DNA from: a virus
Reading direction: 5' to 3' (one strand)
DNA: 64,000 nt
Virus record (IMG/VR): IMGVR_UViG_3300050343_000270
Location: 1 to 64,000 of that record
The position numbers and the translations under genes are program-made. The notes under the pieces were generated by a model. It had not been told where the DNA came from. It worked only from the letters and a program-made list of their open reading frames with translations, and did no database searches. Of the stretch, positions 19,496 through 64,000 are shown piece by piece (within the stretch, counting starts at the first letter, position 1; the number at the start of each line of letters is the position of its first letter).

Positions 19496-21478
19496 ATGAA
19501 AACTAAAGTTAAAAGCACACCGATTATCGCAAGCAAAGGAATGGATTCTTCTATCATGTCAATGGATAACAAGGGCAAAGAAATGGCTTGTTTCTTTTTG
19601 AGAGATAAGATTTACTCTAACAAAATTCAAGCAGTAGTTAGAGAGTATATTTGTAATGCTGTTGATGAGCATGTCAAGTATAACGTTGATCGTCCTGTCG
19701 AGGTAAACCTAACAGCGCAGGGTCTGAATGGTGCTATATTCTCTGTTCGTGATTTCGCCAATGGCTTATCGGAGGATGCAGTTCGGAAAATCTTTGGATG
19801 CTATTTCAAGTCTACCAAGTCAGAAACGAATGAAAGTATCGGCGGGTTCGGAGTCGGATCAAAAGCTGGTCACGCATATACCGATGCTTTTAATATCATC
19901 TCTTACTTTGATGGTGTCAAGACCAGCTACTCTTGTATGCTTGGTGCTGGTGAGTCGGGAGTTCCTGTCGGTCATATCTACAAGATGGGTGAGTCACCAA
20001 CCGATGAGACAGGTGTTGAGATCAACCTAACAGTCAAAGAAGCAGAAAAAGACAAAGAAAGGGTTTTTCACAACGCTCAGTCTGATGTATCAAAGTTCAA
20101 GTATGAGATAATTCGCTTTATTCAGTTTGCTCATTCACCTATTACCGCAAAAATCTTTGATAATGTTTATGACACGCCCGAACAAAAACATTCTGTCGTT
20201 ATTGATGGTTTCACAGTCGCAATCGTAGATGCTTTCACCACAGGTTCTAATCATTACAAACGGGATGTTGTTAACAATACGAAGATTTGTATTAAGATGG
20301 GCGATGTAGTTTATGGTTCGGCGTTCGTCCCTAGAGGTTTTGGTGTTTCATGTAAGTCGCATCACTTTATCACTATCACCGCCCCTATGGGTCAAATTGA
20401 CATACCTATTAGCCGTGAGAATATGGAAGATACAGTTCGTAATCGGCGTGTGAAGGAAAAGATTGATAAAGTATTGGAGAAAATAATAAACGATGATTCA
20501 CAAAAATTTAAAAAGAAAACACTTATTGATCTTGTTGATGAATACATAACTAGTCCGTCTTTTGGGTCTAGTGAGGACGGAAATTATTTCAATTACAGTA
20601 ATGACGTTATCTATGGCTTAATGGATAAAGTAGCTACATCTATACGTGATACTACCACACCAGAACTTAAAACATCAGTTAAAAACGTTGATAAAGAGAA
20701 TGGTAAGCCTGTTGTAGTTTTCGTGCCAAACAACCGCACAACTGATAAGTGGATTTCTAAAGTAAATGCATGGTGTCTTTCAAACGACAAAAAGTATTTG
20801 ATTCTTACAGGACGCGAAGACATATTGGCTTTAGACACTAAAGATTCATTTCACTTGATAGATGCTCGCAAACTCAAAATATCCAAGAAGCAAGATAGAA
20901 CTCGCGCCGTTATTTATTACAACGGTGAAAACTGGAAAACAATGAGTGCATTAGAGTTTCACAATCACCTTCGTGAATACTATAATTTATCTGAGGCTAA
21001 GGATGAAGCGCAAGCCAAGAGGCAAAATGCCCAACTAGCTAAAACAGGAAAAGATATTGAGGTATTAATAGGTTTCATTCTTAATCCAGAGAAAAGCCGT
21101 TATTCTTGGAACGCATCTCCTTTTTATGTCGGGGCGAAAGGTCTCTTAAAAGACTTGAAGGATATTGGAATCGCCGTCAACAGTCCTATCTCTATCCGCA
21201 AAACTACCATTCAAGACGAAAATCAAGAAAAAAATCAACAAGCAGTTTATTCAAGCAACATTCAGAAGATGAGTTGGGTTTCCGACAGAACAAAGGATAT
21301 TGTAAAGAAGCACCCCGATAAATCCCAGAGAATTGTCGATTTGCTTGAAAGTATTCGATCAGAAGGTTCTCTAAGAGGCAAGATATTGACGCAATTCAAT
21401 GCCGATATGAAATACTGCAACGCACAGCAAACAAACCTATCAAAATCAGACATGAAGAAAATCCTAAACTTAGTTTGA
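19496..21478 (+). CDS. rIIA: rIIA-like lysis inhibition/anti-exclusion protein (GHKL ATPase N-terminus)
   Basis: KIYSNKIQAVVREYICNAVD, VRDF..GLS, STK, GGFGVGSK; adjacent to rIIB. Confidence 0.88.
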   Translation: MKTKVKSTPIIASKGMDSSIMSMDNKGKEMACFFLRDKIYSNKIQAVVREYICNAVDEHVKYNVDRPVEVNLTAQGLNGAIFSVRDFANGLSEDAVRKIFGCYFKSTKSETNESIGGFGVGSKAGHAYTDAFNIISYFDGVKTSYSCMLGAGESGVPVGHIYKMGESPTDETGVEINLTVKEAEKDKERVFHNAQSDVSKFKYEIIRFIQFAHSPITAKIFDNVYDTPEQKHSVVIDGFTVAIVDAFTTGSNHYKRDVVNNTKICIKMGDVVYGSAFVPRGFGVSCKSHHFITITAPMGQIDIPISRENMEDTVRNRRVKEKIDKVLEKIINDDSQKFKKKTLIDLVDEYITSPSFGSSEDGNYFNYSNDVIYGLMDKVATSIRDTTTPELKTSVKNVDKENGKPVVVFVPNNRTTDKWISKVNAWCLSNDKKYLILTGREDILALDTKDSFHLIDARKLKISKKQDRTRAVIYYNGENWKTMSALEFHNHLREYYNLSEAKDEAQAKRQNAQLAKTGKDIEVLIGFILNPEKSRYSWNASPFYVGAKGLLKDLKDIGIAVNSPISIRKTTIQDENQEKNQQAVYSSNIQKMSWVSDRTKDIVKKHPDKSQRIVDLLESIRSEGSLRGKILTQFNADMKYCNAQQTNLSKSDMKKILNLV

Positions 21479-21534
21479 CAAACATCTATTTTTATATTAA
21501 AATCTCAACGAACAACAAACCAACAATAACAACA

Positions 21535-22530
21535 ATGCTAAATTATATTATTAACGACAAAGGTATCGTGATCTTTCACGACAACAAGCCTGTAAAGGTG
21601 GACAAGACAGCACCCGAATATCATCGAGTGATCGCGGCGTTTGATTTGCCCGAATCCGAGCAAGAGAAAGCCATCGTAGAAATTCTTAATAAGAAAACTG
21701 GCGAGTTCTCAGAGCATGGATTCACAATCAATCCAGACAATGTAACGTTTGGAGGGGAACGATTACCCACGGCATTAGCTGATAAGGTTCGTTCAATCGC
21801 GCAACAAGGACTACCAGTAAAACTCTTTGTTAATTTTTGGAAAAAACTACAAGAGAATCCATCTGCCAATTCTGTTAGAGAACTCTATGACTTTTTGAGC
21901 TACAAAGAGCTTCCTATCACAGAGGATGGTTTCTTCATTGCTTACAAGGGTGTTAATCGTAATGGCTACTCATGTCATGGCAATTTAAACACTAAAGTCC
22001 TTCAAGGTGTCGTAGATGATACTGGTAGAATCGAAAACAATGTGGGCGATACTATCGAAGTTCTGAGGCGCGATGTGGATGACGATAGAGATCATAGTTG
22101 CTCCTTTGGTCTGCACGTTGGATCACTTAACTATGCCAAGTCATTCTCCAATGGTCGTGTGCTAATCGTCAAAATCAATCCCGCCGATGTAGTGAGTGTC
22201 CCAAAAGATTGCTCATCCCAGAAGTGCCGTGTTTCAAAGTATAAGATCATCGACTATTTCGATACCGAGATCAAGAGTGCTGTATGCGATGAAGATGGCA
22301 ATGAGATTATCGCAGAAGATAAACAAGAGAATGATGACTTTGTTAATCGTGTAAACAGATACGTTATGAACAAACAACAACAGGGGCTTTGTCCGCTTAA
22401 TGTTACACAGATTCAAAACTCATTCAGCCCAGAATATCCTAGCCGACCACGTGTGCTTGATGCCCTAACTGAGCTTGGTTGGGTGTGGTTTGAGGACAGT
22501 GACGGACATTGGGTAGACCTTGATCAATAA
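21535..22530 (+). CDS. rIIB: rIIB-like protein
   Basis: NPSANSVRELYDFL...LPITEDG.FIAYKGV...CSFGLHVG...VKINPADVVSVP.D...KCRVSKY. Confidence 0.9.
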   Translation: MLNYIINDKGIVIFHDNKPVKVDKTAPEYHRVIAAFDLPESEQEKAIVEILNKKTGEFSEHGFTINPDNVTFGGERLPTALADKVRSIAQQGLPVKLFVNFWKKLQENPSANSVRELYDFLSYKELPITEDGFFIAYKGVNRNGYSCHGNLNTKVLQGVVDDTGRIENNVGDTIEVLRRDVDDDRDHSCSFGLHVGSLNYAKSFSNGRVLIVKINPADVVSVPKDCSSQKCRVSKYKIIDYFDTEIKSAVCDEDGNEIIAEDKQENDDFVNRVNRYVMNKQQQGLCPLNVTQIQNSFSPEYPSRPRVLDALTELGWVWFEDSDGHWVDLDQ

Positions 22531-22852: not shown

Positions 22853-22932
22853 GTAAGTCACTTAGTATCAACGAGTTACGCCCAAGAGGGGGGCGCTTCG
22901 CCGTAACTCATTGAGTATCAACGAGTTATGAC
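22853..22932. repeat. 80-bp double-palindrome element, copy 1 of 9
   Basis: Two TAA(G/C)TC-N13-GA(G/C)TTA sites 50 bp apart with a G-rich linker. Confidence 0.9.
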
Positions 22933-23114
22933 TATTTTTTTGTTAGAGTGTTAAACCAGAAAACCCCGCCCCCTGTGTTCTAACAGGAGACGGGGAAGCG
23001 CCACAGAAAAGATTTTTTAAAAAATGCTATTGTCTAACATGTTCGCTAAGAACAATTAGCATAGATAAAAAGATGCAAGCCATGATTGAATATATATCCA
23101 TTAGACTTGTTAGA

Positions 23115-23825
23115 TTAGGCGCAAGGCTCGATTACAAAGCCGCTCGCATCCTTCTTGGCTAGTCCTTTTTCTATCAGTCCAACCACTACGCCTTTTTTGT
23201 CAAGGAAGCGTAAGTCGCTGTCGTCGCCGTCTATTACCTCGAAACCGTTCCATGTCTTAGGAAGTGAGCCGCGAAACACTGCCGCGATATTTCCGCCGCT
23301 TTTAAGAACTGAAACCATTTCAAGGTCAGAACTTTCTTCGCTCCGTGAGAGTGTTAGAGAATAGTTGTTAGGCAATTCTCCATTAAGAAATTGAGTCATT
23401 CTGTCAACTGATTTGGTATAGTCGTAAAAGATTTGATCTTTAAACTTATCAAACACATTTAAACCGTCAAAATGTTTCATATTTTCCCACGGCAAGTCAC
23501 TTGTTAGATTGAGACGAAAGCAAGCCTTCATTTTTTTTCTTGTCGCAGACTTAACAGCTTTTGTTATTTCATCGGATAATTGAGCCATAAAGTTCTTGCG
23601 ATCTTTAAACACTCGAATTGTTTTCTTTATTCGAGCCTCTTGGACATTTTTCATTGCTCCCCGTCCAGCAGTGTTCAAACATGCCATTGCGCATCCTTTA
23701 CTTGCCCACTTGCACACGTTGAAGCCGCTTACTTTTGACGGCGCAAGGTGAATGCCAAATGTTTTCCATCCCTTTTTTTCTCCCTTTGCTGTCTTGCTAT
23801 TTCCTGAGTTTAGTATTTTCTGCAT
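23115..23825 (-). CDS. Conserved phage protein, Gp88-like
   Basis: NSKTAKG, LAP, VC..AS.GC..ACLNTAGRG, RLN.TSD, FYDYTK and DGD.SDLRFLD. Start follows TACAAT-N6-ATG. Confidence 0.8.
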   Translation of the reverse strand: MQKILNSGNSKTAKGEKKGWKTFGIHLAPSKVSGFNVCKWASKGCAMACLNTAGRGAMKNVQEARIKKTIRVFKDRKNFMAQLSDEITKAVKSATRKKMKACFRLNLTSDLPWENMKHFDGLNVFDKFKDQIFYDYTKSVDRMTQFLNGELPNNYSLTLSRSEESSDLEMVSVLKSGGNIAAVFRGSLPKTWNGFEVIDGDDSDLRFLDKKGVVVGLIEKGLAKKDASGFVIEPCA

Positions 23826-23926
23826 GGCGGTATTGTAACAGAATTGCGAATGCACACAAGCTTTTTTAAATTATTTTTTAATCTTTTTTTTATCACTTTT
23901 TACTTGACAAGCGTGATCTGTTAGAT

Positions 23927-24505
23927 TTAGTTAGATTTGATCTGAGACGAAAGCCAGAGGTGATCAGTCAAAGCCTTTGCCTTCTTAAAAATTGGCGATA
24001 CAGATACAGTTGTGTCGAACCTGCGGTATTCTATGAGAGTAAGCAAAAACTTCTTTTCTTTTATGTAGGTCTTAGCGAACTTAGGGTCATTTTCGGTGAT
24101 GTCTCTTGTGTTAGATATGAGGTCGGCTAATTTAATGATTAGAGGAGTGTTACCTAGCGAAACAAGCCTCCAAGCCTCTGATTCTTTTCTTGCTTTTCTG
24201 TTCCAAGCAGGAAAGTTGGTTTTAGTGAATACATCTGTTAGATCAAGTATAACACTTGCATTAATTCTGCCAAACTTTTCCACCAATTTCTCGAAACTGT
24301 AGTCCGCATTAATCGGCGCAACATCTTCTAACACATCATGCCCCAAAGCTCCAATAGTGAAATCATCGCCATAGTAACCAAAAGACTGAAGAATCTCAAG
24401 AACTTCTTCTGTGTGAGTCCAGTAAGGAAAGCCAGTATACTTTCTTTTGTGGTTTATGGAGTCGTGTGCTTCCCTGAAGAAAGTTATTAATTGGTCGGTT
24501 GTCAT
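23927..24505 (-). CDS. HD-domain phosphohydrolase, RelA/SpoT hydrolase-like
   Basis: AH...RKYTG.PY..H...HDVLED...LTD...IKLADLISN. True start at 24505 after TATAAT-N6. Confidence 0.85.
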   Translation of the reverse strand: MTTDQLITFFREAHDSINHKRKYTGFPYWTHTEEVLEILQSFGYYGDDFTIGALGHDVLEDVAPINADYSFEKLVEKFGRINASVILDLTDVFTKTNFPAWNRKARKESEAWRLVSLGNTPLIIKLADLISNTRDITENDPKFAKTYIKEKKFLLTLIEYRRFDTTVSVSPIFKKAKALTDHLWLSSQIKSN

Positions 24506-24668
24506 GGCTGTATTATAGCGCAACGGAGGAGTGAAGCAACTGTTTTTTAATGTTTTTTTTGTGGAACAAAATGTTCCACGGAATAGTCGTAAGTCCTTCA
24601 TTATCAACGAGTTACGACGGTGCGGGGGGCGCTTCGCCGTAACTCGCTCTGTTTCAACGAGTTACGAC
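24506..24668 (-). promoter_or_regulatory. Cassette copy 2: sigma70 promoter + GTGGAAC-N5-GTTCCAC operator + double palindrome
   Basis: TTGCTT-N16-TATAAT on the minus strand; operator 24561-24579; element 24589-24668. Confidence 0.85.
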
Positions 24669-24683
24669 TATTATTACGATATT

Positions 24684-24959
24684 TTAGTGCTTTACCCTTT
24701 CGCACAGTTTGTGGCAACAGTACCCCTCTGCTTTCGCAACCATGTCTTGCCTCATCACCTCCATGTCTGCTTTGAGTTGTGGATCTTCTTTGCACATAAC
24801 GTCATACGATAGAGACGCGTCAACTAACTTATTGCCTTCTCTAACATATTCTTTTCCTAGATTAACTTCCAAGGTTTCGGGGTTGTAGTAAACGCGCATT
24901 AAGATAGGACTCCCCCCATCTTCGCACGGTATCAATTGATCTACTATATGTTTAGGCAT
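24684..24959 (-). CDS. Hypothetical protein
   Basis: 91-aa ORF in an early operon. Confidence 0.6.
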   Translation of the reverse strand: MPKHIVDQLIPCEDGGSPILMRVYYNPETLEVNLGKEYVREGNKLVDASLSYDVMCKEDPQLKADMEVMRQDMVAKAEGYCCHKLCERVKH

Positions 24960-24961
24960 TG

Positions 24962-25225
24962 TTAATCGTTGTTTAAAATGTTTATGATCTCCTCCGAGAT
25001 ACCCAGAACAGAAGCAATCCTCACATTCATTTCGAACGCTTGCGTTGCAGTGTCTTTTTGATCATCCTCAGATTTTACATATTGATTCCGATCATGAAAA
25101 GATTCATAAGGAAATTTGTCTAATGCATTTTTAAGGCTTGTGTGGAAGTCTACCCATTCTTTAATTAAGGATTCGCGACTATTTCCATTCATGTGTATTG
25201 CGGGGGCGATTTGGCGAGCGTTCAT
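24962..25225 (-). CDS. Hypothetical protein
   Basis: 87-aa ORF with TAAAAT-N6-ATG upstream. Confidence 0.6.
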   Translation of the reverse strand: MNARQIAPAIHMNGNSRESLIKEWVDFHTSLKNALDKFPYESFHDRNQYVKSEDDQKDTATQAFEMNVRIASVLGISEEIINILNND

Positions 25226-25249
25226 GGTGATATTTTAAGTGTTTAGGTG

Positions 25250-25615
25250 TTAACTGTCAAGATTTTTGGCGAAGATTTTATAACCTTTTTTATTCCCTTT
25301 GATGACGACTAAATCGGCGTGATGCACTGGATTAGATTCTGCGTCTACAAACGTTGGAGCTTTGTATGGATTATAGAAGATTTGATTTTTAGCGGTTGAG
25401 TAATCACGCCGCCCGTTGCATTCGCCCACGACAACAGCATGAACGTTTTTTTTCTTTTCTTTAAGGACTCGCTGTCTACCAGCTTCAGAAACTTTGAATT
25501 CCGCATTTGTTAGAACAACCTCTTCGGCGTAGCGCACAACCTTCCATACGCCATTGACTTTTTCTTGCAATGAGAGGCACCGCCGATGGAGGTTAAAGTA
25601 TATTCTCGTTTTCAT
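25250..25615 (-). CDS. Conserved phage hypothetical protein
   Basis: YFNLH...FKVSEAGRQRVLKEKKKNVHA...YNPYK pattern. Confidence 0.75.
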   Translation of the reverse strand: MKTRIYFNLHRRCLSLQEKVNGVWKVVRYAEEVVLTNAEFKVSEAGRQRVLKEKKKNVHAVVVGECNGRRDYSTAKNQIFYNPYKAPTFVDAESNPVHHADLVVIKGNKKGYKIFAKNLDS

Positions 25616-25622
25616 GTTTTAA

Positions 25623-25916
25623 TTAATCTGTTATAAAAACTTGCTTACCATCCACCTTCCAGAAACCCTTATTGCTTTGCTTCTTGGCATGTTTGATAAT
25701 GTTCTTTGCCGTGCCTCTAACATAAGAGTCTTCAGAGTCTGCAAATCGCCCAATTAGGCTGATCACCTTTTTAAGCTGTTGCTTTGAGGTAGATATAGAA
25801 AACCCGTTGCTGATTAGGTCACCATTGGCTATACCAACGGCTTCTAACATATCTTGATAGTCCGATGACTCCATAACCCTTTTGAGATATAGAACCCCCT
25901 GCTTTTGCTTTGTCAT
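25623..25916 (-). CDS. Hypothetical protein
   Basis: True start at 25916 (MTKQKQ) after TATAAT-N6. Confidence 0.65.
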   Translation of the reverse strand: MTKQKQGVLYLKRVMESSDYQDMLEAVGIANGDLISNGFSISTSKQQLKKVISLIGRFADSEDSYVRGTAKNIIKHAKKQSNKGFWKVDGKQVFITD

Positions 25917-26079
25917 GGCTGTATTATAGCGCAACGGAGGAGTGAAGCAACTGTTTTTTAATGTTTTTTTTGTGGAACAAAATGTTCCACGGAACCTCTG
26001 TAAGTCACTAAGTATCAACGAGTTACGACCGTGCGGGGGGCGCTTCGCCGTAACTCGCTCTGTTTCAACGAGTTATGAC
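25917..26079 (-). promoter_or_regulatory. Cassette copy 3: promoter + operator + double palindrome
   Basis: Promoter and operator identical to copy 2; element 26000-26079. Confidence 0.85.
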
Positions 26080-26198
26080 CATCAATGTTACTTCTTGTGT
26101 ATTAGTTCCCCGAAAAAATAGAAAAGAGAAACAATTAATATCATCGCTATTATGAATCCTACAACTTCTGTAATTATTGCCTCCATGATCTTATTATA

Positions 26199-26639
26199 TT
26201 AGAGTTCCTTAATGCGTATGAATTTTAATCTTCCTTCGTGTTTATAGCCACTTGAATCCATCCATGTAATAAAGCTGATACCTATACCACACACTCCGTC
26301 GATGATATCTTGTGTGTATTTAAGTTTGAACTGTTCATATTGTTCTTCTGTCAGGTCGCCATAATCAATATTACGTCTACGGTTTTTTGTTCGTTTCTTC
26401 GAATCTACAGCCTCATTAAATTCTTCCTCGCTAAGTTGTTTACCTTCGATGTACCATTCCTTATAGCCATTAGCATATTCGCAAGCAGGTCCATCTAGAC
26501 GGTGACGCTCACCATTTTGATACCAAGCCTTATATCCATCAACACCTTCAAAAGCAGGTCCATTTAGACGGTGACGCTCATCATTTTGAAACCATTCTCT
26601 AGTACCGTCGTCGTTTACTTTTACTTTATACTCTTGCAT
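26199..26639 (-). CDS. MORN-like repeat protein (HRLDGPA repeats)
   Basis: 22-aa repeats W.QN...HRL.GPA.E. Confidence 0.8.
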   Translation of the reverse strand: MQEYKVKVNDDGTREWFQNDERHRLNGPAFEGVDGYKAWYQNGERHRLDGPACEYANGYKEWYIEGKQLSEEEFNEAVDSKKRTKNRRRNIDYGDLTEEQYEQFKLKYTQDIIDGVCGIGISFITWMDSSGYKHEGRLKFIRIKEL

Positions 26640-26643
26640 AATC

Positions 26644-27162
26644 TTATTCCTTAATACGAAGTTTCTTTACATCGATGTTCATTGCTTTTGCTATATCCTC
26701 AAGAGTTACCTCGACTTTGTTATTTCTATTATTGAATTCTTCTTCAGTAAGTTTTATACCGTCAATATACCAAGCCTTATATCCATCAGCATCTTCAACA
26801 GCAGGTCCATCTAACCGATGAAGCTTATCATTTTGATGCCAATACTTATTTCCATTAGAACGTTCAACAGCAGGACCATCTAGACGGTGAAGCTCATCAT
26901 TTTGATACCATTCCTTATCACCATTAGCCAATTCAACAGCAGGTCCATCTTCACGATGAAGCTTTCCATTTTGATACCATGTCTTATTGCCATTAGAATT
27001 CTCAAAAGCAGGACCATCTAACCGATGAAGCTTATCATTTTGATACCAAGCCTTACTGCCATTAGAACGTTCAATAGCAGGTCCATCTAACCGATGAAGC
27101 TTATCATTTTGCCGCCACCACTTATCGCCGCTGTCTTTTACTTTTACTACGTACTCTTGCAT
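26644..27162 (-). CDS. MORN-like repeat protein (five LHRxDGPA repeats)
   Basis: 66-bp tandem repeats; true start MQEYVVK at 27162. Confidence 0.85.
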   Translation of the reverse strand: MQEYVVKVKDSGDKWWRQNDKLHRLDGPAIERSNGSKAWYQNDKLHRLDGPAFENSNGNKTWYQNGKLHREDGPAVELANGDKEWYQNDELHRLDGPAVERSNGNKYWHQNDKLHRLDGPAVEDADGYKAWYIDGIKLTEEEFNNRNNKVEVTLEDIAKAMNIDVKKLRIKE

Positions 27163-27195
27163 AATTTTTTTTGTTTTATCCCTTTCGGTAAGGAC

Positions 27196-27350
27196 ATTAT
27201 AGCGCAACGGAGGAGTGAAGCAACTGTTTTTTAATGTTTTTTTTGTGGAACAAAATGTTCCACGGAACCTCTGTAAGTCATTGAGCATCAACGAGTTACG
27301 ACGGCGCGGGGGGCGATTCGTCATAAGTCGTTAAGTATCAACGAGTTACG
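27196..27350 (-). promoter_or_regulatory. Cassette copy 4: promoter + operator + double palindrome
   Basis: Promoter identical to copies 2 and 3; element 27273-27350. Confidence 0.85.
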
Positions 27351-27584
27351 GATTAGAAAAGTCTACGTGCAAAACGTTTTTTTTATCCTCTTCGATTTCT
27401 AAACTAACAGATTCTATGAACCCCGCGAGCATTTGGGGATCTTTAAAAATCAAATCATTTAGAACTCCCTCTGGATATTCTTCATCTGTTAGAAACTCTC
27501 CTTCAACTGTAAATTTTACTATTTGTGTCACTAAATTGTTGCGCCCCCGAAGGGGCTTTGTTATTAGGCATTGACCTTGTTAGA

Positions 27585-27929
27585 TTAGAACCAGCACGAA
27601 TAGAAAACCTGCTTGCCCTCTCTCAAGGTATCATACGCATCAGAGATGAAAGAAAGAGTTTGTTCTTTTTTGTATTCATCATATCTCGAATCATTCCCAT
27701 AGAAAAATCCGTGTGTTTCTGGTAGCGCGTCATTAACGACAGCCGCTTCAAGCCTTTCGATGTCGCTCATATTCAGTTCAAGCTCTGAACAATTCCAATC
27801 GACGCTGTTTCCCTTGGTGCGCCATAGAGCCTCCATCCATCCGTCCAACGCATTGTGCTTGCGCCAACTTTGGATTTCGATGGTGTCCCCGTCTTGATTT
27901 CTTGTATATGCCCGTTGATCTAGTCCCAT
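27585..27929 (-). CDS. Conserved phage hypothetical protein
   Basis: MGLDQ...WRKHNAL.GWM...LP.T.GFFYG...FYSCW pattern. Confidence 0.75.
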   Translation of the reverse strand: MGLDQRAYTRNQDGDTIEIQSWRKHNALDGWMEALWRTKGNSVDWNCSELELNMSDIERLEAAVVNDALPETHGFFYGNDSRYDEYKKEQTLSFISDAYDTLREGKQVFYSCWF

Positions 27930-28000
27930 TTTATTGTTCCTTTCTTTTTAGTTGTTTGTTAGTTGTTAGTTTTTTTGGTTTTGTCCCTCTCGGTAAGGAC

Positions 28001-28164
28001 ATTATAGCGGAAATGGCGGAAAAAGCAAGAACCTTTTGCATGTTTATGCACTTTTTTTGTGGAACAAAATGTTCCACAGGATCGTCATAAGTCCCTAAGC
28101 GTCAACGAGTTACAACCGAGCGGCGGGGGCTTCGTCATAACTCGTTCTATTACAATGACTTACG
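28001..28164 (-). promoter_or_regulatory. Cassette copy 5: promoter + operator + double palindrome
   Basis: TTGCTT..TATAAT; operator 28059-28077; element 28087-28164; terminator-like hairpin 28207-28234. Confidence 0.8.
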
Positions 28165-28281
28165 TGGGTTATTTACGCTGTTAGAAACTGTTAGATTGGG
28201 GGTAAGAAAAACCCCCGCTGGTTGGCGGGGGAAAACTGTTAGGTTTATTACTTCCGTCTAGTGACGGGGATCTGTTAGCTG

Positions 28282-29046
28282 TCAAGCTGGGAGAACTAGA
28301 CCAGTCTCATTGTCAACTGTTAGGCTAGGCGAGTGATTCGCCAAGCGGTCAAAGTTGGATTGGATTGTCATTGTTCTCTGTGGCAACTTGGAAACGTCTG
28401 AACCCTTGAGCATCTCGGTGCAAGCGTTGTAGAGATTCCAGAGGTTGTTACCCTTGAACTCCTCATGGCGTGGAGCTTCAAACTCTTTGACAGTCTTGTA
28501 AACGTCGCGAGCAGAGAACCCCTTGGAGTCTACCAGATCAATCATCAAGTCAGCCGCTTGATTGCGCGTGATCTCAGTCTCTTGATACGCCGTGATGCGC
28601 TGTGCCATGTCAGACCAGTGAGAGGTGACGCGAGAAACAGCAGAAGATAACACGCGAGGCAAGTCTGTTAGGATTCGCGGAGTATGACGGCGAGCAAGTT
28701 TGATATCAGAGGAGAAACAAAGGTTATCACACACAAGCATCTGATTCCCGATGCAAATTGCGGAAGCAAAAGCCTTGTCATGGCTGTTACGGATTCCGAC
28801 AACTAGATTTCGGTCATCTGCTTGAATGTCCTTGCCAGTGATAGCGAAGCCGCCGAAGTAGCGAAGATCACCACGGGCTAGACCATGCTCCTCATGTGTG
28901 ATTTCTAAGCCAGCGCGATTAAGAGCCTTGCGTGTATAATCTACGAGCGTAGCGTGAGGAATTGGCGTGTGGGTGTCCGTTCCAGCAGGTGTGTTGAGGT
29001 TAGCAAGCTGGTCGGATTCGATGCGGTTTTTTGATAGTATTAACAT
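28282..29046 (-). CDS. DUF932-like protein
   Basis: THTPIPH...GIRNSHDK...VCDNLCF...RRHT...NLWNLYNA.TE.LK. Confidence 0.75.
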   Translation of the reverse strand: MLILSKNRIESDQLANLNTPAGTDTHTPIPHATLVDYTRKALNRAGLEITHEEHGLARGDLRYFGGFAITGKDIQADDRNLVVGIRNSHDKAFASAICIGNQMLVCDNLCFSSDIKLARRHTPRILTDLPRVLSSAVSRVTSHWSDMAQRITAYQETEITRNQAADLMIDLVDSKGFSARDVYKTVKEFEAPRHEEFKGNNLWNLYNACTEMLKGSDVSKLPQRTMTIQSNFDRLANHSPSLTVDNETGLVLPA

Positions 29047-29313
29047 GTTTTTTTTGTTTAGTTGGTTAAGCGTCTTTCGTGACTGCGGGGACATTATAAC
29101 CTAAAACATTTTCATAAGCAAGCTATTTTCGCATAAAAAACGATTTATTTTCACATGTTCCACGGAAATGTTCCACGCGCAAATCGACCTAACAACACCT
29201 GTTAGAGTGTCAAATACTCCCTAACAATGCCAGATATTTGGGTAAATAACCATTTGGAGTTTCTGTTAGTTTAAGTGGTTCAGTGTCAATGAGTTATGTG
29301 TTTGTAGATATAC

Positions 29314-29393
29314 GTAAGTCCTTCAGTATCAACGAGTTACGACGGTGCGGGGGGCGCTTCGCCGTAACTCGTTCAGTATCAACGAGTTATGAC
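29314..29393. repeat. 80-bp double-palindrome element, copy 6
   Basis: Matches the consensus; extra single site at 29271-29298; TGTTCCAC tandem at 29156-29176. Confidence 0.9.
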
Positions 29394-29476
29394 GATTTTT
29401 CTGTTAGAGTCTTGAGCAAAAAAACCCCGCCCCCCGATCTAACAGGGGACGAGGCTAACACTACTCCAGAAAACTG

Positions 29477-29749
29477 TTAGGCTACGACCTCGATTCCTGT
29501 TAGGTGCAACGTGCGGTATTTCTCCTGCGCGTTGTCGTCAATGTCAGTCGCTAAGACTTTAAGGCAACGTCTGCCATTTTTCTTGGCATGCCATACGTCT
29601 TCCACGGCGTGAATTTTAAAAGTGCGCTCCTTGTCTCTGCGCACAGTTGACTTCCCGTGGTTAATGTATCGCACAGTGCGATCTTTGAGAAGGTTTGCGA
29701 TCTCCAGAGCGGAGGCGGTTATATCTGTGTTTGTGTTTGCGATTTGCAT
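29477..29749 (-). CDS. Hypothetical protein
   Basis: TTGACT-N17-TACAAT-N6-ATG gives start MQIAN. Confidence 0.6.
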   Translation of the reverse strand: MQIANTNTDITASALEIANLLKDRTVRYINHGKSTVRRDKERTFKIHAVEDVWHAKKNGRRCLKVLATDIDDNAQEKYRTLHLTGIEVVA

Positions 29750-29851
29750 GGTTGTATTGTAGTTGGTTTTTTCGGTTGAGTCAATCCCTTTTTTTCGGAT
29801 TGTAAGATTATTTAGTGCTTTTAAAACGTCCATTTGTTTTATGTGTTTGTG

Positions 29852-30019
29852 TTATTCTGGCACGATTGCCATTACATGCTCGATAGAGAAGCCGATTTCT
29901 TCTCCGTCCTCAGTCGTTCCCCAGAATGGGCGGTGAGGGTTATTTTCTACAACTTCGTCAACGATGACACAAGCTCCATTCACGATCACTTCTGTGCCGA
30001 TTTTGATTTGTTCTTTCAT
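29852..30019 (-). CDS. 55-aa hypothetical protein (paralogue of 33650..33844; not in the ORF track)
   Basis: MKEQIKIGTEVIVNGACVIVDEV...FWGTTEDGEEIGFSIEHVMAIVPE. Confidence 0.65.
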   Translation of the reverse strand: MKEQIKIGTEVIVNGACVIVDEVVENNPHRPFWGTTEDGEEIGFSIEHVMAIVPE

Positions 30020-30162
30020 AACTGTTGTAATTTTGATGGGTTAACTTCTTCTTCTCCGACTTGCTCACTCTCGATAACGACATTGCCGTTGTCAAGAATC
30101 TCAACAACTTGAACGTTGTCGCCGTCGAACCTAAACCACTGATTAATCTCTATCTTCATCAT
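30016..30162 (-). CDS. 48-aa hypothetical protein (not in the ORF track)
   Basis: TATAAT-N6-ATG; ATGA overlap with the next gene. Confidence 0.6.
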   Translation of the reverse strand: MMKIEINQWFRFDGDNVQVVEILDNGNVVIESEQVGEEEVNPSKLQQL

Positions 30163-30255
30163 GCATATATTATAGTAGAAAACTGGATTTTTACAAGCTA
30201 TTTCGACATTAAAAACGCTTTTTTTTTACTTTTTAACTCATTCATTATCAACGAC

Positions 30256-30774
30256 TTAGAATTGTTCCACAGAATTGTTCCACAGAGATAGCTCGAATTT
30301 GCGTCTTTTCACTAATCCTTTGCGTATTTTTCCCCCCGCCATGCGATACATAGGCATTACTTCAGAAACGCTCTTATAGTTTCCATCGTTTAAACGTCCC
30401 TCTTGAGAAACAAGCTGATAGAGTGCGCCCCTTCCGCAGTTGTATGTGAAACTTGTTAGAGCGGCGAGTTGGTAATCTGTTAGAGGCACTTTAACAATAG
30501 AAAGAACTGTTTTTTTGTATTCGTGTAATTCATTTTCTAACAACTCGAAAGCCTCCCGCTCGGAGATGAAACCTTTTGAAACTGCTTTTCCTGTGTGACC
30601 ATATCCAATTGTTAGTTTTCCGCCGCAACACACATACGCCTTGGCTCTGAATCCCTCGAAATGTTTAATGCCTTGCGTCATGTGATACCAAGGCACGTTA
30701 GGTTTTACTAACAGAGCATTGTTAGAAGCCAAGGCTGGGGTGATGAAAAGCGCGAACAGTATTATAATTTTCAT
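30256..30774 (-). CDS. GH24 phage lysozyme with N-terminal signal peptide
   Basis: FEG.R..AY..GKLTIGYGHT...ALTSFTYNCG...GLVKRR..E; N-terminus MKIIILFALFITPALA. Confidence 0.88.
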   Translation of the reverse strand: MKIIILFALFITPALASNNALLVKPNVPWYHMTQGIKHFEGFRAKAYVCCGGKLTIGYGHTGKAVSKGFISEREAFELLENELHEYKKTVLSIVKVPLTDYQLAALTSFTYNCGRGALYQLVSQEGRLNDGNYKSVSEVMPMYRMAGGKIRKGLVKRRKFELSLWNNSVEQF

Positions 30775-30780
30775 GGTGTA

Positions 30781-30936
30781 ATTATACTCTAACAGATGGG
30801 CTTTGGCTAGCATTTATTTTTCTTTTTTTGTGGAACAAAATGTTCCACGGAATAGTCATAAGTCCTTCATTATCAACGAGTTACGACGATGCGGCGGGGG
30901 CTTCGCCATAAGTCGTTCATTATCAACGAGTTACGA
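30781..30936 (-). promoter_or_regulatory. Cassette copy 7: promoter + operator + double palindrome
   Basis: TATAAT-N6-ATG; operator 30830-30848; element 30858-30936. Confidence 0.85.
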
Positions 30937-30955
30937 TTGCTTTTTTATTGAATTA

Positions 30956-31036
30956 TGGTGGAGCATAGGGGAATCGAACCCCTGTCCGCGATCACTGGGT
31001 TATACCCTATCACTCACGTCTAAACCTGTATGCCCC
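30956..31036 (-). ncRNA. Minimal tmRNA-like RNA (tRNA-like domain only, 81 nt)
   Basis: GGGGCAT/ATGCTCC-ACCA acceptor stem with G3.U wobble; stemless D-loop ACAGGTTTAGAC; GGAC-AGGGG-TTCGATT-CCCCT T-arm; no tag ORF between them. Confidence 0.8.
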
Positions 31037-31042
31037 GTAATC

Positions 31043-31190
31043 ACCTTCATACTCTCTCGGATACACACGGGAATCTTTATACCCGTCCAATGGAGTCACC
31101 CATAGTTAACACAACCAGTTTCCGTGACTAAATGGAAGTTTACTTGTGCGGCAAGTTTACTGCTTAATGCACCTGAGAAAGTATGTAGGT
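31043..31190 (-). ncRNA. Candidate rod-shaped structured RNA (6S-like?)
   Basis: ~22-bp closing stem ACCTACATACTTTCTCAGGTGCAT/GTGTATCCGAGAGAGTATGAAGGT, a central bubble and an inner AGTCAC/GTGACT stem. Confidence 0.5.
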
Positions 31191-31199
31191 TTTAAATTG

Positions 31200-31421
31200 T
31201 TAGTTGTTAGAAAGGGCGACCTCGGCTTTGTAGTTTTCTTCGTCGATGCGCTCAAGCTCCTCAAGCTCTTCTATCTCTTCGTTCAGATTTTTCAGTTCTT
31301 GCTGTGCTTGGAAAACATCGAAATTTATTTTCCATGAAGCAGAACCGCCATTATTGAATTCATCTATTTGAAAGTCGAGGCGAGCGGCGCGTTGCTTTTT
31401 GCTAAGTAGTGTTTCAGTCAT
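31200..31421 (-). CDS. Hypothetical coiled-coil protein
   Basis: TACAAT-N6-ATG start. Confidence 0.6.
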   Translation of the reverse strand: MTETLLSKKQRAARLDFQIDEFNNGGSASWKINFDVFQAQQELKNLNEEIEELEELERIDEENYKAEVALSNN

Positions 31422-31427
31422 GGGCAT

Positions 31428-31592
31428 ATTGTACCAAAAAAGAGCGAAACCGCAAGAACTTTCTGCATGTTTTTTAACTTTTTTTGTGGAACAAAATGTT
31501 CCACGGAATAGTCATAAGTCCTTCATTATCAACGAGTTACGACGGTGCGGCGGGGGCTTCGCCGTAACTCGTTCAGTATCAATGAGTTATGA
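31428..31592 (-). promoter_or_regulatory. Cassette copy 8: promoter + operator + double palindrome
   Basis: Operator 31486-31504; element 31514-31592. Confidence 0.85.
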
Positions 31593-31802
31593 TTGTTAGA
31601 AGCTGTTAGATACATATCAGAGTTCCTTAGTATTCAGTTTTTCCCATCGTTCGATTTTTATGCCTAACCGTTCGATTTTAGCACCCAGCGTTGAAGCCTT
31701 GATCATCAGCCTCTTCAGTCTCCAACAATTGATATTGTTTATTAGGTTTTTCATTTTGTAGTGTGGTGTTTCGTATCTCATACTATTATTATATTAGAGT
31801 TC

Positions 31803-32668
31803 CTAAAGATATTCTTTCACATATCCGCGAGCATCATCTAAATGCTCTGCATCATCAAGTTCGTTGAGAATTGCAAGCTTGATCTTCTCAACCATTTCAG
31901 GAAGGTCTGATTTGCTGAACTCTAAATGCTCCATACCCTCGCAATAGTCAAGGATAATGTTTTTAATCTTATTCTTTTCGTTCATATCTTATTATATTAG
32001 TGTTTCGCAAGCTGTCTTTTTCTCACTTGCTTGGATTCATTATAGTATAATTCTCAGAAAGCGCAAGGATTATTTCGCCCTTTTATCACTTTGTCAGTTC
32101 TCCCAAGGAAATTTAGTTACGCTCGCCTCACTCCACCCGTCGATAAGACCACGCGCCCACTCAGCTTCTTCTCGCGCTTCGTTCCTTTCGCGTTCAAGTC
32201 TTTCAACATCTTCAAGCTTTAACGACTTATCATTTTCTTTTTTAAGGCGGCGAATCTCTTGAATGAGCATATTCATTTCATCAATGAAGTCGTCAACTCC
32301 TGACATTTTGTCACCGTAAACATCGGTTACAGTTCCATCGTTGCAGTTGTATTCGTAGTTGTGGGCGGTGAATTCGTTTTTCATACCTAATTATATTAGT
32401 GTTTCAATTAGTCTACAACTTCCTCTGTCAATTCGGTGGTAACCACCTTAGTTAATTTGACGACTTCTACTTTTTCGTTAGGGATGATTACCTGAACTCC
32501 ATGACCTAAAACATAGGTATATTTGTCATTCTTGTATGGTGTTTTGGTCTTGTTAGTAATCTCTTCTCCAACATCGATTGTGCGTTCCACGCCATGCCAT
32601 TTGAACGTGTGTTGTTCGCGCATGCGGTGCATGTAGTTTGTGGTAGTTTTTCTGTTAGTGTTTTTCAT
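31803..32668 (-). other. Three small hypothetical genes (31803-31985, 32094-32384, 32408-32668)
   Basis: Co-oriented ORFs; a ~95-bp promoter/leader is duplicated at ~31997-32092 and ~32681-32777. Confidence 0.6.
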
Positions 32669-32722
32669 AGTAGTATTTTTTTAGTGTTTCGCAAGCTGTC
32701 TTTTTCTCACTTGCTTGGCTAT

Positions 32723-32889
32723 ATTATAGTATAATTTTCAGAAACCGCAAGGATTATTTCGCCCTTTTATCACTTTTTTTTGTGGAACAAAATGTTCCAC
32801 GGAGACTCTGTAACTCGTTCATTATCAACGACTTATGACGGTGCGGCGGGGGCATCGTTGTAACTCGTTCAGTATCAACGACTTATGAC
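32723..32889 (-). promoter_or_regulatory. Cassette copy 9: promoter + operator + double palindrome
   Basis: Operator 32782-32800; element 32810-32889; terminator-like hairpin 32915-32952. Confidence 0.85.
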
Positions 32890-32992
32890 GATTTTTCTGT
32901 TAGAGTTTTGAGCCAAAAAAGCCCCGCCTCCCACACTACTAGGAGACGAGGCTAACACTACTGCACTATGAAAGCTGTTAGATTGTTAGATG

Positions 32993-42703: not shown

Positions 42704-44602
42704 GTGGCTTGGGATAAAGGAAAACAGCGTTATAGATATGAGTATTCAGCGACGAAAATCAACGAGAAATTGTTGGCTATTGAAGGGGATATGAAAGAAG
42801 AGGAGGCGAAATATCAACTGTATCGTTTTTTACGAAACAATGTTGGTTATACTTGCGAACTCTTTCTTGGGGTTAGATTATTTCCGTTTCAGGAAATGGC
42901 GATAAAATCTATGATGATCGGAGATTACTCGATGTTCGTCTTTTCTCGTGGTTTATCAAAGACTTTCTCAACAGCCATCTATGTTATTTTAGAATGCTTA
43001 TTGAATCCTAGCGCAAATATTGGTGTTATTGCTGGGACATTCCGTCAGTCCAAACAAATATTTTCAAAGATTGAAGATATCATGGCAAAGCCCGAAGCGG
43101 CTATGGCGCGAGAGTCTGGATACAAGCTTTCCAAAGGAACAGATGCATGGACAATGAAGATTGGTAAAAACAAAGCAATTGCTTTACCCTTGGCTAACGG
43201 GGAGAGACTTCGTGGTTTTCGTTTTAATCGTATTGTGCTTGACGAGTTCCTAACCATACCAGAAAAGATTTTCACCGAAGTTATTTTGCCGTTTCTCGGT
43301 GTTGTTGAAAACCCTACGGAAAGGGAAGAGATTTACGATATAGAGAGTATGTTGATTGACTCTGGAGAAATGAAAGAGTCTGACAGGCATGTTTGGTCCA
43401 ATAACAAACTAATCATTCTATCATCGCCAAGTTTCAAGTTCGAATACATGTATAAATTATACTGTAAATACCGAGACCTTATCAGCGGCGTATACGAGAG
43501 TGCCGACGAAGAAGATGACGAGGACGCGGCGGATGATGCTTATCGTATTATTATGCAGTTAAGTTATGACTGTGCGCCGAATACACTTTATGATAAAAAC
43601 CTTTTGAAGCAAGCTAAATCAACAATGAGCGAAATGCAGTTCGAGCGAGAGTTTGGTGGTCAGTTCGTGGATGAGAGTGATGGTTATTTTCGTTTATCTA
43701 AGATGATGAAATGCACTATTCCTGATGGCGAATACCCTGCGGCAGAAGTGGTGGGTAATCCTAAAGATCAATACATACTATCATTTGACCCTAACTGGGC
43801 TGGAAATACAAGCGCCGACCACTTTGCTATGCACGTGTTTAAGCTATTGCCTGACTCCAAGAAGTCTTGCTTAGTCCACAGTTATGCAATCGCGGGAGTT
43901 TCTCTAAAAGACCACATGAGGTATTTTCATTATATATTAACTCATTTTAATATCGTGGGTATCTGCGGTGACTATAACGGAGGGGTTCAGTTTATCGACA
44001 GTTGTAACGAAAGTGAATTATTCAAATCGTCAAATATCAATATTGGAGTAATAGGAATGGATATTGACAAATCAGAAGAATATAATGACAACATGGTCAA
44101 GCTTAAAAATGAATATAATATTAGTGGTAGAAAATATTGTATTCTAAGGAAGCCCACATCTCAGTGGATTCGTTCAGGAAACGAACTACTTCAAGCAAAT
44201 ATTGACCACCAGAAAATTCTATTTGGGGCTAGATCGGTAGATGACCACTTTGACGCTCAAAGAAAAAAGAAACTTCCCATTACTCAGATAAAATGGGACA
44301 TGAATATGTTGGGTAGCAACAATTCTGCTAAGATGATCGACTTCATAGACCACCAAAAAACCATAATCGAACTTACAAAGTCAGAATGTGCAAATATTGA
44401 AGTTAAGAGCAACCCCCAAGGTAGCCAATCTTTCGATTTACCCCAAAATCTTAAGAGAGCAACTGGTCCCAACAGAGCGCGAAAAGACTCCTATTCCGCA
44501 CTAGTTCTAGGAAATTGGTTTATCAAACTATACTACGACATGAATGAAGCAAAAGATAAACCCAAACCTGTTAACGACTTCATTCCAAGAATCATAAAGT
44601 AA
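42704..44602 (+). CDS. terL: Terminase large subunit
   Basis: LFPFQ Q-motif, SRGLSKT Walker A, LRG.R...VLDE Walker B, SFDP nuclease Asp, KDSYSA. Confidence 0.92.
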   Translation: MAWDKGKQRYRYEYSATKINEKLLAIEGDMKEEEAKYQLYRFLRNNVGYTCELFLGVRLFPFQEMAIKSMMIGDYSMFVFSRGLSKTFSTAIYVILECLLNPSANIGVIAGTFRQSKQIFSKIEDIMAKPEAAMARESGYKLSKGTDAWTMKIGKNKAIALPLANGERLRGFRFNRIVLDEFLTIPEKIFTEVILPFLGVVENPTEREEIYDIESMLIDSGEMKESDRHVWSNNKLIILSSPSFKFEYMYKLYCKYRDLISGVYESADEEDDEDAADDAYRIIMQLSYDCAPNTLYDKNLLKQAKSTMSEMQFEREFGGQFVDESDGYFRLSKMMKCTIPDGEYPAAEVVGNPKDQYILSFDPNWAGNTSADHFAMHVFKLLPDSKKSCLVHSYAIAGVSLKDHMRYFHYILTHFNIVGICGDYNGGVQFIDSCNESELFKSSNINIGVIGMDIDKSEEYNDNMVKLKNEYNISGRKYCILRKPTSQWIRSGNELLQANIDHQKILFGARSVDDHFDAQRKKKLPITQIKWDMNMLGSNNSAKMIDFIDHQKTIIELTKSECANIEVKSNPQGSQSFDLPQNLKRATGPNRARKDSYSALVLGNWFIKLYYDMNEAKDKPKPVNDFIPRIIK

Positions 44603-62800: not shown

Positions 62801-64000
62801 CTAACATAAAAAGTCTCAAAGAGAACACCAAAAAGTTAAAGAAAGAAAATCAAGAAATTCAGAAAAGGATAAGCGCTGGCAAATTAAGCAAAGAGCAACT
62901 CAAAATACATGAAAAAAAGCTGAAAAAAAACAATTCTAAAATATCTGACAACGCTAGTCAGATGCAAAATGATAGTGGTGCTGGTATGCTGGCGATGTTT
63001 GCTTTATCTGGGGTAGACACAGGCTTTCAGGCTCTGGCGGACAGCAGGAGAGAGAAGGGGGACGAAAAAGGAGGCATGCTCGCGGATCAGGGATCGGCTG
63101 CCGCACAGTTTGCGTCTATGGGTGCAATGTTTGGACCCATGGGGATGGCGATTGGGGCTGTAACTGGTCAAGTTTATAGTCTTGGATCTGCGCTTCTTGA
63201 CGCTAACAAAAGAATAAATGAAGGCGAAAAAAAGGGGGAAAAGACCTAGATAGGGGTAAAGAGGCTCAAGCTAAAGGCATTCAGAGACAAAGAAGTGCCA
63301 TGAGGAATCTTGGCTTCAGTAAAGGCAACGAAGTAATGGAAGTCGCTCAAAAAGTTGCAAGTGTGGGTCTGCGCGACTACACAGATGAAATAAAAAAAGT
63401 AAAGGATCGTTTGCGTTCAGCCTCTGAGAGTCCTGCGGAATACAAAAAAGCAACCGATGACTATATTAAAGTTATGGAAAAGGTAGCTATAGCCGAGACA
63501 AAGGTTGCCGAAATAAAAAGAATACAAGCAAGTCTGACAAAAAAACAAAATGATTTAATTAAACTAAATGCAGAACAAGCTCAAGCAAGCCAAGCAAGAG
63601 TAAAATCCGCACAAAAGGCTGTTGATACATTAGGGTTTATGAGTGAAATCAGAACACCTGAATTAACTGGCGAGAGAAGAAATGCGGTTGATAGATCTTT
63701 GAAGGGTCAGTCGGCTGTTGCTGGAGCGCAATTAAATAAACAAACATTAAATGACTTAAAAGTAGAGTTAAGTCAAACAACAGATAAAGATAAAAGAGAA
63801 GAAATAGTAGAGAAAATCGAACAAGCCACGACAGTCTTCAACAAATCGGTTGTTTCTGCGGCAATAAGTCTAAGGAACAATTTAAACCAAGCTGAATTTG
63901 ATCTTGGAAAGCTGAAAGAGACTCTAACTACACAAAAAGAGCAAACATTCGACAGTAGGCTTGGCTTTGTAATTCTTTAAAAGACAAAACAATAGACGCC
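59821..64000 (+). CDS. Tail tape measure protein (TP901-type core); 3'-partial, frame breaks near 63230 and 63970
   Basis: AAELARQG, VD..FAVSAQDLA, GAVIGNAFKSIFTR. ORF 63300..63980 is open upstream in the -1 frame to at least 63228. Confidence 0.88.

Follow-up and report, generated by a model that had tools for sequence, protein, structure and literature searches.

Several well-studied control regions depend on the DNA-bending protein IHF (integration host factor), including the H sites of lambda attP, the lambda pL and Mu Pe promoters and the origin of pSC101; the geometry of IHF on DNA is reportedly that of Rice et al. 1996. In this work we analyze a 64,000-nucleotide stretch of viral DNA (positions 1 to 64,000 of IMG/VR record IMGVR_UViG_3300050343_000270, which we call the window), in which nine copies of an element made of two palindromes joined by a GC-rich linker are set among putative early genes. 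The element is akin to IHF-dependent control regions and to the cassettes known as promoter-early stem-loops (PeSL), which combine a promoter with a terminator stem-loop in T4-type phages (PMC2839356, PMC4122927). On balance, we lean towards reading the paired palindromes as sites for a DNABII (IHF/HU-type) protein, which would form an architectural module of the promoter and also a recombination boundary. From the DNA we infer what binds, that it bends the site and that transcription responds.

The element agrees with IHF sites at every specified position of the consensus, with WATCAA starting from the dyad and a distance of 9 bp between the ApA steps. The settings are also alike, with the element upstream of predicted phage early promoters and single copies of the site in bacteria beside integrase genes and in iteron origins. 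Unlike canonical IHF sites, which combine the consensus with an A-tract, the site in the element is fully symmetric, consisting of two inverted halves, and this suggests a homodimer. It has extra conserved positions (CGAG), the sites are paired at a fixed 50 bp around a GC-rich linker at about nine promoters, and in bacteria the site occurs in Verrucomicrobiota, Fibrobacterota and Bacteroidota rather than in Proteobacteria. With PeSL the element shares the repeated cassette, the strong sigma70-type early promoter (here predicted) and a location amid small genes of unknown function, and in both the cassette marks the limits of the insertions, deletions and moves by which close relatives differ (PMC2839356). 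It differs from PeSL in its core, paired protein-site palindromes without RNA-type covariation, and in its terminators, which are separate and optional. Furthermore, its phage is not T4-like. The large terminase is about 25% identical to its nearest relatives, from Bacillus siphoviruses, and thus no cultured relative can be used as a guide.

The window contains 19 exact matches to the pattern TAASTC-N13-GASTTA, compared with 0.01 expected from shuffled sequence. All but one of these form nine pairs, with starts exactly 50 bp apart, and the nineteenth is a single site at 30234. The repeat core is 75 bp in length, and homology among the window copies reaches 122-173 bp. The linker is 25 bp long, with a G+C content of 72-84% against about 32-48% in 2-kb bins of the window, and is G-rich on the plus strand. 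Genes from about 22.5 to 39 kb are on the minus strand, and all nine elements are oriented alike. Read on that strand, each unit consists of the end of the previous gene, a terminator-like hairpin in four of nine cases, site A, the linker, site B and, in eight of nine cases, a predicted promoter. The copies are as follows.

32811..32885, minus strand: double element 1, with site A, the 25-bp GC-rich linker and site B in minus-strand order (palindromes start at 32811 and 32861)
31515..31589, minus strand: double element 2 (31515 and 31565)
30859..30933, minus strand: double element 3, directly downstream of an 81-nt tmRNA-like gene (30859 and 30909)
29315..29389, minus strand: double element 4 (29315 and 29365), after which comes a third and degenerate site at 29272-29296
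28088..28162, minus strand: double element 5 (28088 and 28138)
27274..27348, minus strand: double element 6 (27274 and 27324)
26001..26075, minus strand: double element 7 (26001 and 26051)
24590..24664, minus strand: double element 8 (24590 and 24640)
22854..22928, minus strand: double element 9, the end of the array and the sole copy for which no sigma70-type promoter was found downstream (22854 and 22904)
30234..30258, strand not assigned: exact single site, TAACTCATTCATTATCAACGACTTA, at the 3' end of the lysozyme gene
29272..29296, strand not assigned: degenerate single site (TAAGTG...), 43 bp from site B of element 4

These data agree with a first-pass annotation of the window, which had reported nine double copies at 50-bp spacing, a G-rich linker, a single orientation and a position after one module and ahead of the promoter of the next (a promoter being predicted here for eight of the nine copies). 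Its start coordinates were each one base ahead of the TAA and its description was otherwise accurate, except that of its two single sites, at 29271 and 30233, only the latter (30234) is exact, and the former (29272) is degenerate. The double element is a real, strongly non-random, family-wide regulatory module.

The family was delineated by scanning IMG/VR with a 15-nt piece of the site and fetching the loci, about 40 of which have several sites. In these loci, 84 double elements (74 distinct) have a spacing of exactly 50 bp, six of 51 bp and two of 52 bp. The sites are conserved across relatives and the linker sequence is not, yet every linker is GC-rich, contains a C run and keeps to a fixed length. 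Even very divergent phages keep the geometry of the element despite their differing linkers. Two complete relatives, as judged by CheckV (147.7 and 140 kb), have all their sites within one 10-kb stretch or within two clusters of about 3 kb each. The C-rich strand of the linker faces the promoter in 16 of 23 cases only, and the element is therefore not strictly polar. In one subgroup (L038, L039, L053, L023, L068 and L074) the dyad symmetry extends to about 165 bp, in the layout TTGACA, about 20 bp, GGGAAAAAC, the element, GTTTTTCCC, about 20 bp, TGTCAA. Some elements of this subgroup lie between divergent promoter cassettes (e.g., L023 at about 1776), which indicates that the element can serve both directions. 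A full-text literature search with two 9-mers returned primers and unrelated sequences only, with no description of the element.

The case for an IHF-type protein includes the consensus of the 25-bp site. To avoid bias, we took every 25-mer opposite a strict match on the other side of the GC-rich linker, whatever its own sequence, which gave 173 distinct ones. The consensus of these partner sites is TAACTCGTTGATAATCAACGAGTTA, i.e., YAA-N4-TTGAT-W-ATCAA-N4-TTR, which amounts to two inverted copies of the IHF consensus (WATCAA-N4-TTR) with the central W in common. Exact WATCAANNNNTTR is present in 91 of the 173 (53%). The IHF consensus is matched exactly by 14 sites within the elements of the window, which has 21 matches in all (6.7 expected). 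In IHF sites, WATCAA begins near the center, with TTR 4 bp farther out, and the U-turn is centered on two ApA steps 9 bp apart, the points of proline intercalation (PMC1874591). Both features are found here. WATCAA is followed by TTR 4 bp on in either half, and in TAACTCGTTGATWATCAACGAGTTA the W is the dyad (position 13), with AA steps at 17/18 (top strand) and 9/8 (bottom strand) that are separated by 9 bp. Positions 4 and 22 freely take either C or G, the tolerance that would be expected of a minor-groove reader. We took the consensus and geometry from PMC1874591, given that Table 2 of PMC6907758 places WATCAANNNNTTR against H-NS and another motif against IHF, apparently a swap. Fur/Zur, Fis, LexA, CIRCE, parS, DnaA and CtrA motifs and sigma54 promoters were also compared, and none fits.

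A further line of evidence is the coupling to promoters. A predicted promoter of the form TTGnnn-N16/17-TATAAT is found 60-200 bp downstream of eight of the nine copies on the minus strand, and homology between copies (110-170 bp) takes in the promoter; a strong sigma70-like early promoter within the repeat is also a feature of PeSL. Seven copies also place the palindrome GTGGAACA-N3-TGTTCCAC, along with an A-rich tract, between site B and the promoter. This second palindrome matches seven times in the window (0.01 expected), centered near -65 of the seven promoters. The predicted promoters are listed below.

32723..32800, minus strand: promoter cassette (GTGGAACA-N3-TGTTCCAC at 32782-32800, -35 TTGCGG at 32745-32750, -10 TATAAT at 32723-32728)
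31419..31504, minus strand: promoter cassette (palindrome at 31486-31504, -35 at 31450-31455, -10 TACAAT at 31428-31433, predicted leaderless ATG at 31421)
30772..30848, minus strand: promoter cassette of the lysozyme gene (palindrome at 30830-30848, -35 at 30804-30809, -10 at 30781-30786, predicted leaderless ATG at 30774)
29093..29121, minus strand: promoter of the DUF932 gene (-35 TTGCTT / -10 TATAAT), about 195 bp downstream of element 4
28001..28077, minus strand: promoter cassette (palindrome at 28059-28077, -35 at 28023-28028, -10 at 28001-28006; leadered transcript predicted)
27196..27263, minus strand: promoter cassette (palindrome at 27245-27263, -35 at 27218-27223, -10 at 27196-27201; leadered transcript predicted)
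25914..25990, minus strand: promoter cassette (palindrome at 25972-25990, -35 at 25945-25950, -10 at 25923-25928, predicted leaderless ATG at 25916)
24503..24579, minus strand: promoter cassette of the HD-domain gene (palindrome at 24561-24579, -35 at 24534-24539, -10 at 24512-24517, predicted leaderless ATG at 24505)

In the four cassettes marked leaderless, the ATG lies exactly 6 nt past the -10, a distance that predicts leaderless early mRNAs. With this ATG as +1, the centers of sites B and A lie near -97 and -147, respectively. Across relatives, the element and the predicted promoter are about 55 to 170 bp apart, a distance that varies in helical-turn steps. For 38 distinct element/-10 pairs, the Rayleigh value is 0.47 at 10.5 bp (p ~2e-4, an optimistic figure, the element copies being related and the promoters in relatives predicted) and 0.43 at 10.0 bp, with no periodicity at 9.5, 11.5 or 12 bp. 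A stricter set of 18 leaderless cases agrees with helical phasing. Such phasing is what an architectural element acting on a promoter would show, and we regard it as suggestive. The idea of a phased protein-binding array, raised in the first-pass annotation, is thus supported by the double-stranded arms, the rigid spacing and the helical register with predicted promoters.

Some further features of the cassettes were noticed. An ATG 6 nt past a TATAAT or TATACT -10 is also found in many relatives (e.g., L106, L074, L038 and L085), and leaderless transcripts are predicted to be a family trait. The GTGGAACA-N3-TGTTCCAC palindrome is common only to the closest relatives, L085 and L003. The heptamer CTAACAG occurs 43 times between 21.8 and 36.8 kb of the window (6.1 expected), mostly on the minus strand. 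Tandem pairs of it abut site A on the promoter-distal side (e.g., at 31603-31609 and 29401-29407), and CTGTTAG pairs are at the mirror position in L036, L106 and L078. CTAACAG looks like a second conserved motif of the cassette.

The same site is found in bacteria, and this bears on what could bind it. Among the genomes of 185,579 species, the exact palindrome is present at 11 loci (about 0.03 expected by chance, on our uniform-composition estimate). Ten of these are single copies, and all 11 are in metagenome-assembled genomes (MAGs) of Bacteroidota, Fibrobacterota or Verrucomicrobiota. A tyrosine-integrase gene adjoins the palindrome in four loci (L124, L125, L131 and L132). A tRNA or tRNA-like 3' end precedes it in L126 and L129, as confirmed by ARAGORN, and in L131 and L132, as read from the sequence. 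In the plasmid-like contig L130, and apparently in L145, the palindrome lies between iterons and a repA gene. L130, a Verrucomicrobiales MAG contig of 7.3 kb, carries parA, iterons (TTTGACGGTTGAC), the palindrome and repA in this order, and L145 has a similar origin with different iterons. In a Verrucomicrobiota chromosome (L162), the palindrome is in the divergent intergenic region of argS, by a TTGCTT-N17-TATACC motif. TGTTCCA-TG-TGGAACA, which is similar to the second palindrome of the phage cassettes, adjoins the single site there.

Broader counts were made with a reversed-pattern control. In a Verrucomicrobiota sample, 14 of 121 genomes have sites, 47 in total against about 15 in the control, and three of the genomes have 7-12 sites each, with zero control matches in these three. 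In the Fibrobacterota, sites with at most one mismatch were found in 12 of 61 genomes (16 sites, none in the control). The site-bearing bacterial genomes encode DNABII paralogues that score higher on IHF than on HU models. No protein of the window has a relative in the bacterial loci. The single copies in bacteria, their contexts and the lack of a common protein point to a host factor rather than a phage protein, and they suggest the Verrucomicrobiota, Fibrobacterota and Bacteroidota as candidate host phyla of the phage.

Phage early promoters under the control of a DNA-bending protein are known from the TF1 sites of SPO1, where TF1 is encoded by the phage. The p4/p6 complexes of phi29 likewise have bending proteins at or near early promoters, where DNA shape controls transcription (PMC3100819). 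In both cases the bending protein is encoded by the phage, whereas tblastn found no DNABII (HU/IHF) gene in our window, and none was found in the two complete relatives, which gave a single sub-threshold match.

We suggest the following mechanism. Each 25-bp palindrome would bind a dimer of a DNA-bending protein of the DNABII (IHF/HU) type, most probably one that the host provides, and the two dimers would share one face of the DNA at a distance of about five helical turns. Either dimer would turn the DNA back on itself, with the stiff GC-rich linker holding the two U-turns apart. A fixed double-U-turn would then be placed upstream of each early promoter, in helical register with it, where it could shape, stimulate or insulate transcription of each early gene module. 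It might bring upstream DNA to the polymerase, trap supercoils or isolate neighboring strong promoters from each other, or do more than one of these. Tentatively, we go further and hypothesize that a homodimeric IHF-like protein of a host from the Verrucomicrobiota or related phyla is used by a large, uncultured clade of 100-150-kb phages in a fixed double-U-turn device, which would be coupled stereospecifically to promoters for activation and/or topological insulation and would drive exchange of early modules. The site would then be the first IHF recognition sequence in those phyla and a marker of the host phylum.

If the IHF-type reading of the sites is right, the element provides a testable recognition sequence for an uncharacterized IHF-type protein of the Verrucomicrobiota, Fibrobacterota and Bacteroidota, and a sequence marker of the likely host phyla of these phages. 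It would also mean that, throughout a clade of large uncultured phages, early promoters are linked to an architectural protein of the host in an unusually strict geometry. In addition, the PeSL idea, that repeated regulatory cassettes drive module exchange, would reach an unrelated phage group and another kind of cassette.

Several observations weigh against an IHF-type binder. The canonical A-tract of IHF sites is absent, and the 5' half is an inverted copy of the consensus instead; in E. coli sites this tract is optional (PMC1874591). The site is more sequence-specific than E. coli IHF sites, with G20/A21 and T5/C6 in the N4 stretches conserved, and the "A" of WATCAA is weakly conserved. The central 5 bp are variable in Fibrobacterota and in some Verrucomicrobiota sites, where only CAA-N4-TTA is common. 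Bacteroidota genomes have only 1-2 copies, not above controls, and the optimism of the phasing p-values belongs here too. The binder may also be encoded by the phage, because many early open reading frames (ORFs) have no recognizable domain: Pfam searches of the early ORFs gave only GP88, HD, DUF932, lysozyme and L5 gp82-like domains, and about 20 ORFs were unmatched.

Some of these points would be explained if the palindromes were operators of another sequence-specific dimeric regulator, encoded by phage or host, with two dimers acting cooperatively 50 bp apart. In its phage-encoded form, this could be, for example, a repressor that shuts off early genes, or an activator, among the unannotated early ORFs. 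We consider this possible, if rather doubtful. The outer arms, including the "GA"/"TC" in the N4 stretch of IHF, are more conserved than the WATCAA core; the variable central 5 bp fit as well, and the roughly 20 unmatched ORFs could conceal a DNA-binding protein. However, a regulator specific to the phage is hard to reconcile with a palindrome that is also found in bacterial chromosomes, plasmid origins and integrase islands with no phage protein in common. The conserved positions (2.5, 8, 18 and 23.5), together with the C/G freedom at 4/22, would fit a wrapping minor-groove reader better than a helix-turn-helix dimer, and the fit to WATCAA-N4-TTR with ApA steps 9 bp apart would have to be a coincidence. 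Multiple copies of a short protein site in one orientation across phage genes are known from the stoperators of Cluster A mycobacteriophages, 13-14-bp asymmetric repressor sites that are spread genome-wide and block elongation. The sites of the element, in contrast, are symmetric, paired, confined to part of the genome and upstream of promoters, and no repressor for them was identified.

It is improbable that the element works as a folded nucleic acid, either as a pair of RNA hairpins (terminator, RNase III site or antiterminator) or as a DNA cruciform. The element is palindromic at three levels, i.e., in each site, in the inner halves and weakly in the linker; an A run and a T run flank it in some relatives, and one copy is terminator-like on the antisense strand. 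Aligning the copies for covariation, a check proposed in the first-pass annotation, gave none in the arms. Complementary bases stand at the S positions in 58% and 50% of sites, and the expected fractions are 0.58 and 0.50. The long hairpin of the inner halves that the same annotation had pointed out does exist as sequence, because two palindromes are adjacent, and is a trivial consequence of this; it has no covariation support, pairing between arms of different sites being below expectation. The linker has a weak dyad only, in which positions 28/48, 33/43 and 34/42 pair above expectation. In the window copies, the palindromes have no U run on their downstream side as transcribed, and an Rfam search of the window assigned the element to no family, the sole match being the tmRNA-like gene. 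Thus, neither the compensatory stem changes and U run of an intrinsic terminator or structured RNA nor the conservation of structure over sequence seen in integron attC sites is found: here it is the sequence that is conserved. We rejected the hairpin/cruciform reading on covariation. As there is no base-pair covariation, the arms are best described as double-stranded protein sites, not hairpins, as far as sequence comparison can tell. Separate GC hairpins with a T run lie ahead of four of the nine copies, so that transcription would seldom reach the element.

32920..32953, minus strand: terminator-like GC hairpin and T run, directly upstream of element 1
29423..29456, minus strand: terminator-like hairpin, directly upstream of element 4
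28212..28231, minus strand: terminator-like hairpin, upstream of element 5
22964..22995, minus strand: terminator-like hairpin, directly upstream of element 9

The role of the element as a recombination boundary is seen by comparison with relatives. In L085, the closest relative fetched, identity to the window is about 64-92% over the aligned shared stretches and 77-92% in most of them. The two are colinear, except that L085 lacks whole modules that are bounded by elements in the window (31.5-32.8 kb, 30.9-31.5 kb and 26.0-27.3 kb). Its GP88 module lies between the DUF932 gene and the homologue of 27585-27929, and in the window GP88 is four elements farther on. In several other relatives, DUF932 and GP88 are neighbors with one element between them. 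Module order is therefore not invariant, and swaps at the element, which the first-pass annotation had proposed to look for, do occur; indels and replacements between close relatives are bounded by the cassette, as in PeSL. The linkers of the window are 82% identical to one another and those of L085 67%, compared with 29% between the two phages, orthologous positions included. Because copies within a genome are more alike than copies between genomes, they recombine with each other. In the mechanism that we favor, the roughly nine like-oriented units of module and promoter would be substrates for ordinary homologous recombination, which would homogenize the copies within a genome and delete, duplicate or move gene modules between them.

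Module exchange needs no dedicated recombinase. The cassette system suggested in the first-pass annotation holds in an evolutionary sense, with element-bounded modules, one of them moved, and homogenized linkers, and has no support as a dedicated site-specific system, whether tyrosine-recombinase or integron-like. Crossover sites of a tyrosine-recombinase-type system that moves gene modules are very unlikely, and the reading of the element as a site-specific cassette system is not supported. The 9-7-9 format is like that of recombinase core sites, the modules of relatives differ exactly at elements, and the bacterial palindrome adjoins tyrosine-integrase genes. Against this, neither PF00589 nor PF00239 was found in the complete relatives G001 and G002, and tblastn of the window with two bacterial integrases matched nothing, in line with the earlier statement that no recombinase is visible there. 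Core sites or attC sites would have a cognate recombinase, and these searches gave none. In the integrase-adjacent Bacteroidota genomes (G004 and G005), the palindrome is present once per genome with no attL/attR pair, and elsewhere it is in plasmid origins and the argS promoter region. The 110-170 bp of homology between copies suffices for homologous recombination and explains the concerted evolution. We find the 9-7-9 format better explained as a symmetrized IHF-type site than as a recombinase site.

Dispersed intergenic repeats of about 100 bp that carry palindromes and an IHF site are known at the ends of transcription units, namely RIP/RIB (BIME-1) of E. coli and Correia of Neisseria. In these, a single IHF site lies at the center, with REP or terminal repeats on either side. 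The element instead has two IHF-like sites around a GC-rich spacer, is phage-borne and is linked to promoters. A selfish miniature mobile element (MITE, BIME or Correia-like) that spreads between genes and carries its protein sites incidentally would account for a dispersed intergenic repeat with nested inverted symmetry (about 165 bp in one subgroup) and has precedent in these IHF-bearing repeats, but is highly unlikely given the confinement to part of the genome in complete relatives, the helical register with promoters and a geometry kept across very divergent phages with differing linkers; no transposase or target-site duplication was noticed, neither having been searched for systematically.

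The window belongs to a phage, with genes for rIIA and rIIB (19496-22530), the large terminase (42704-44602) and the tape-measure protein (59821-63249). Megablast of the 12-kb region against 50,697 phage records gave no match. From its gene and promoter features, we infer that the region of the elements is the early region of the phage. The genes between the elements are mostly small ORFs without a Pfam match, the exceptions being the GP88-like, HD-domain, DUF932, L5 gp82-like and lysozyme genes. Tandem direct repeats of 69 bp lie at 26415-27129, inside genes at 26199-27324, and L003 has a homologous repeat-bearing gene. The tmRNA-model match beside element 3 (30956-31036, minus strand, 81 nt) has tRNA-like ends only and scores 55.3 bits against a gathering threshold of 47. 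ARAGORN called no tRNA in the window and did not call this gene either. A similar tRNA-like 3' end is found ahead of elements in L085 and L023.

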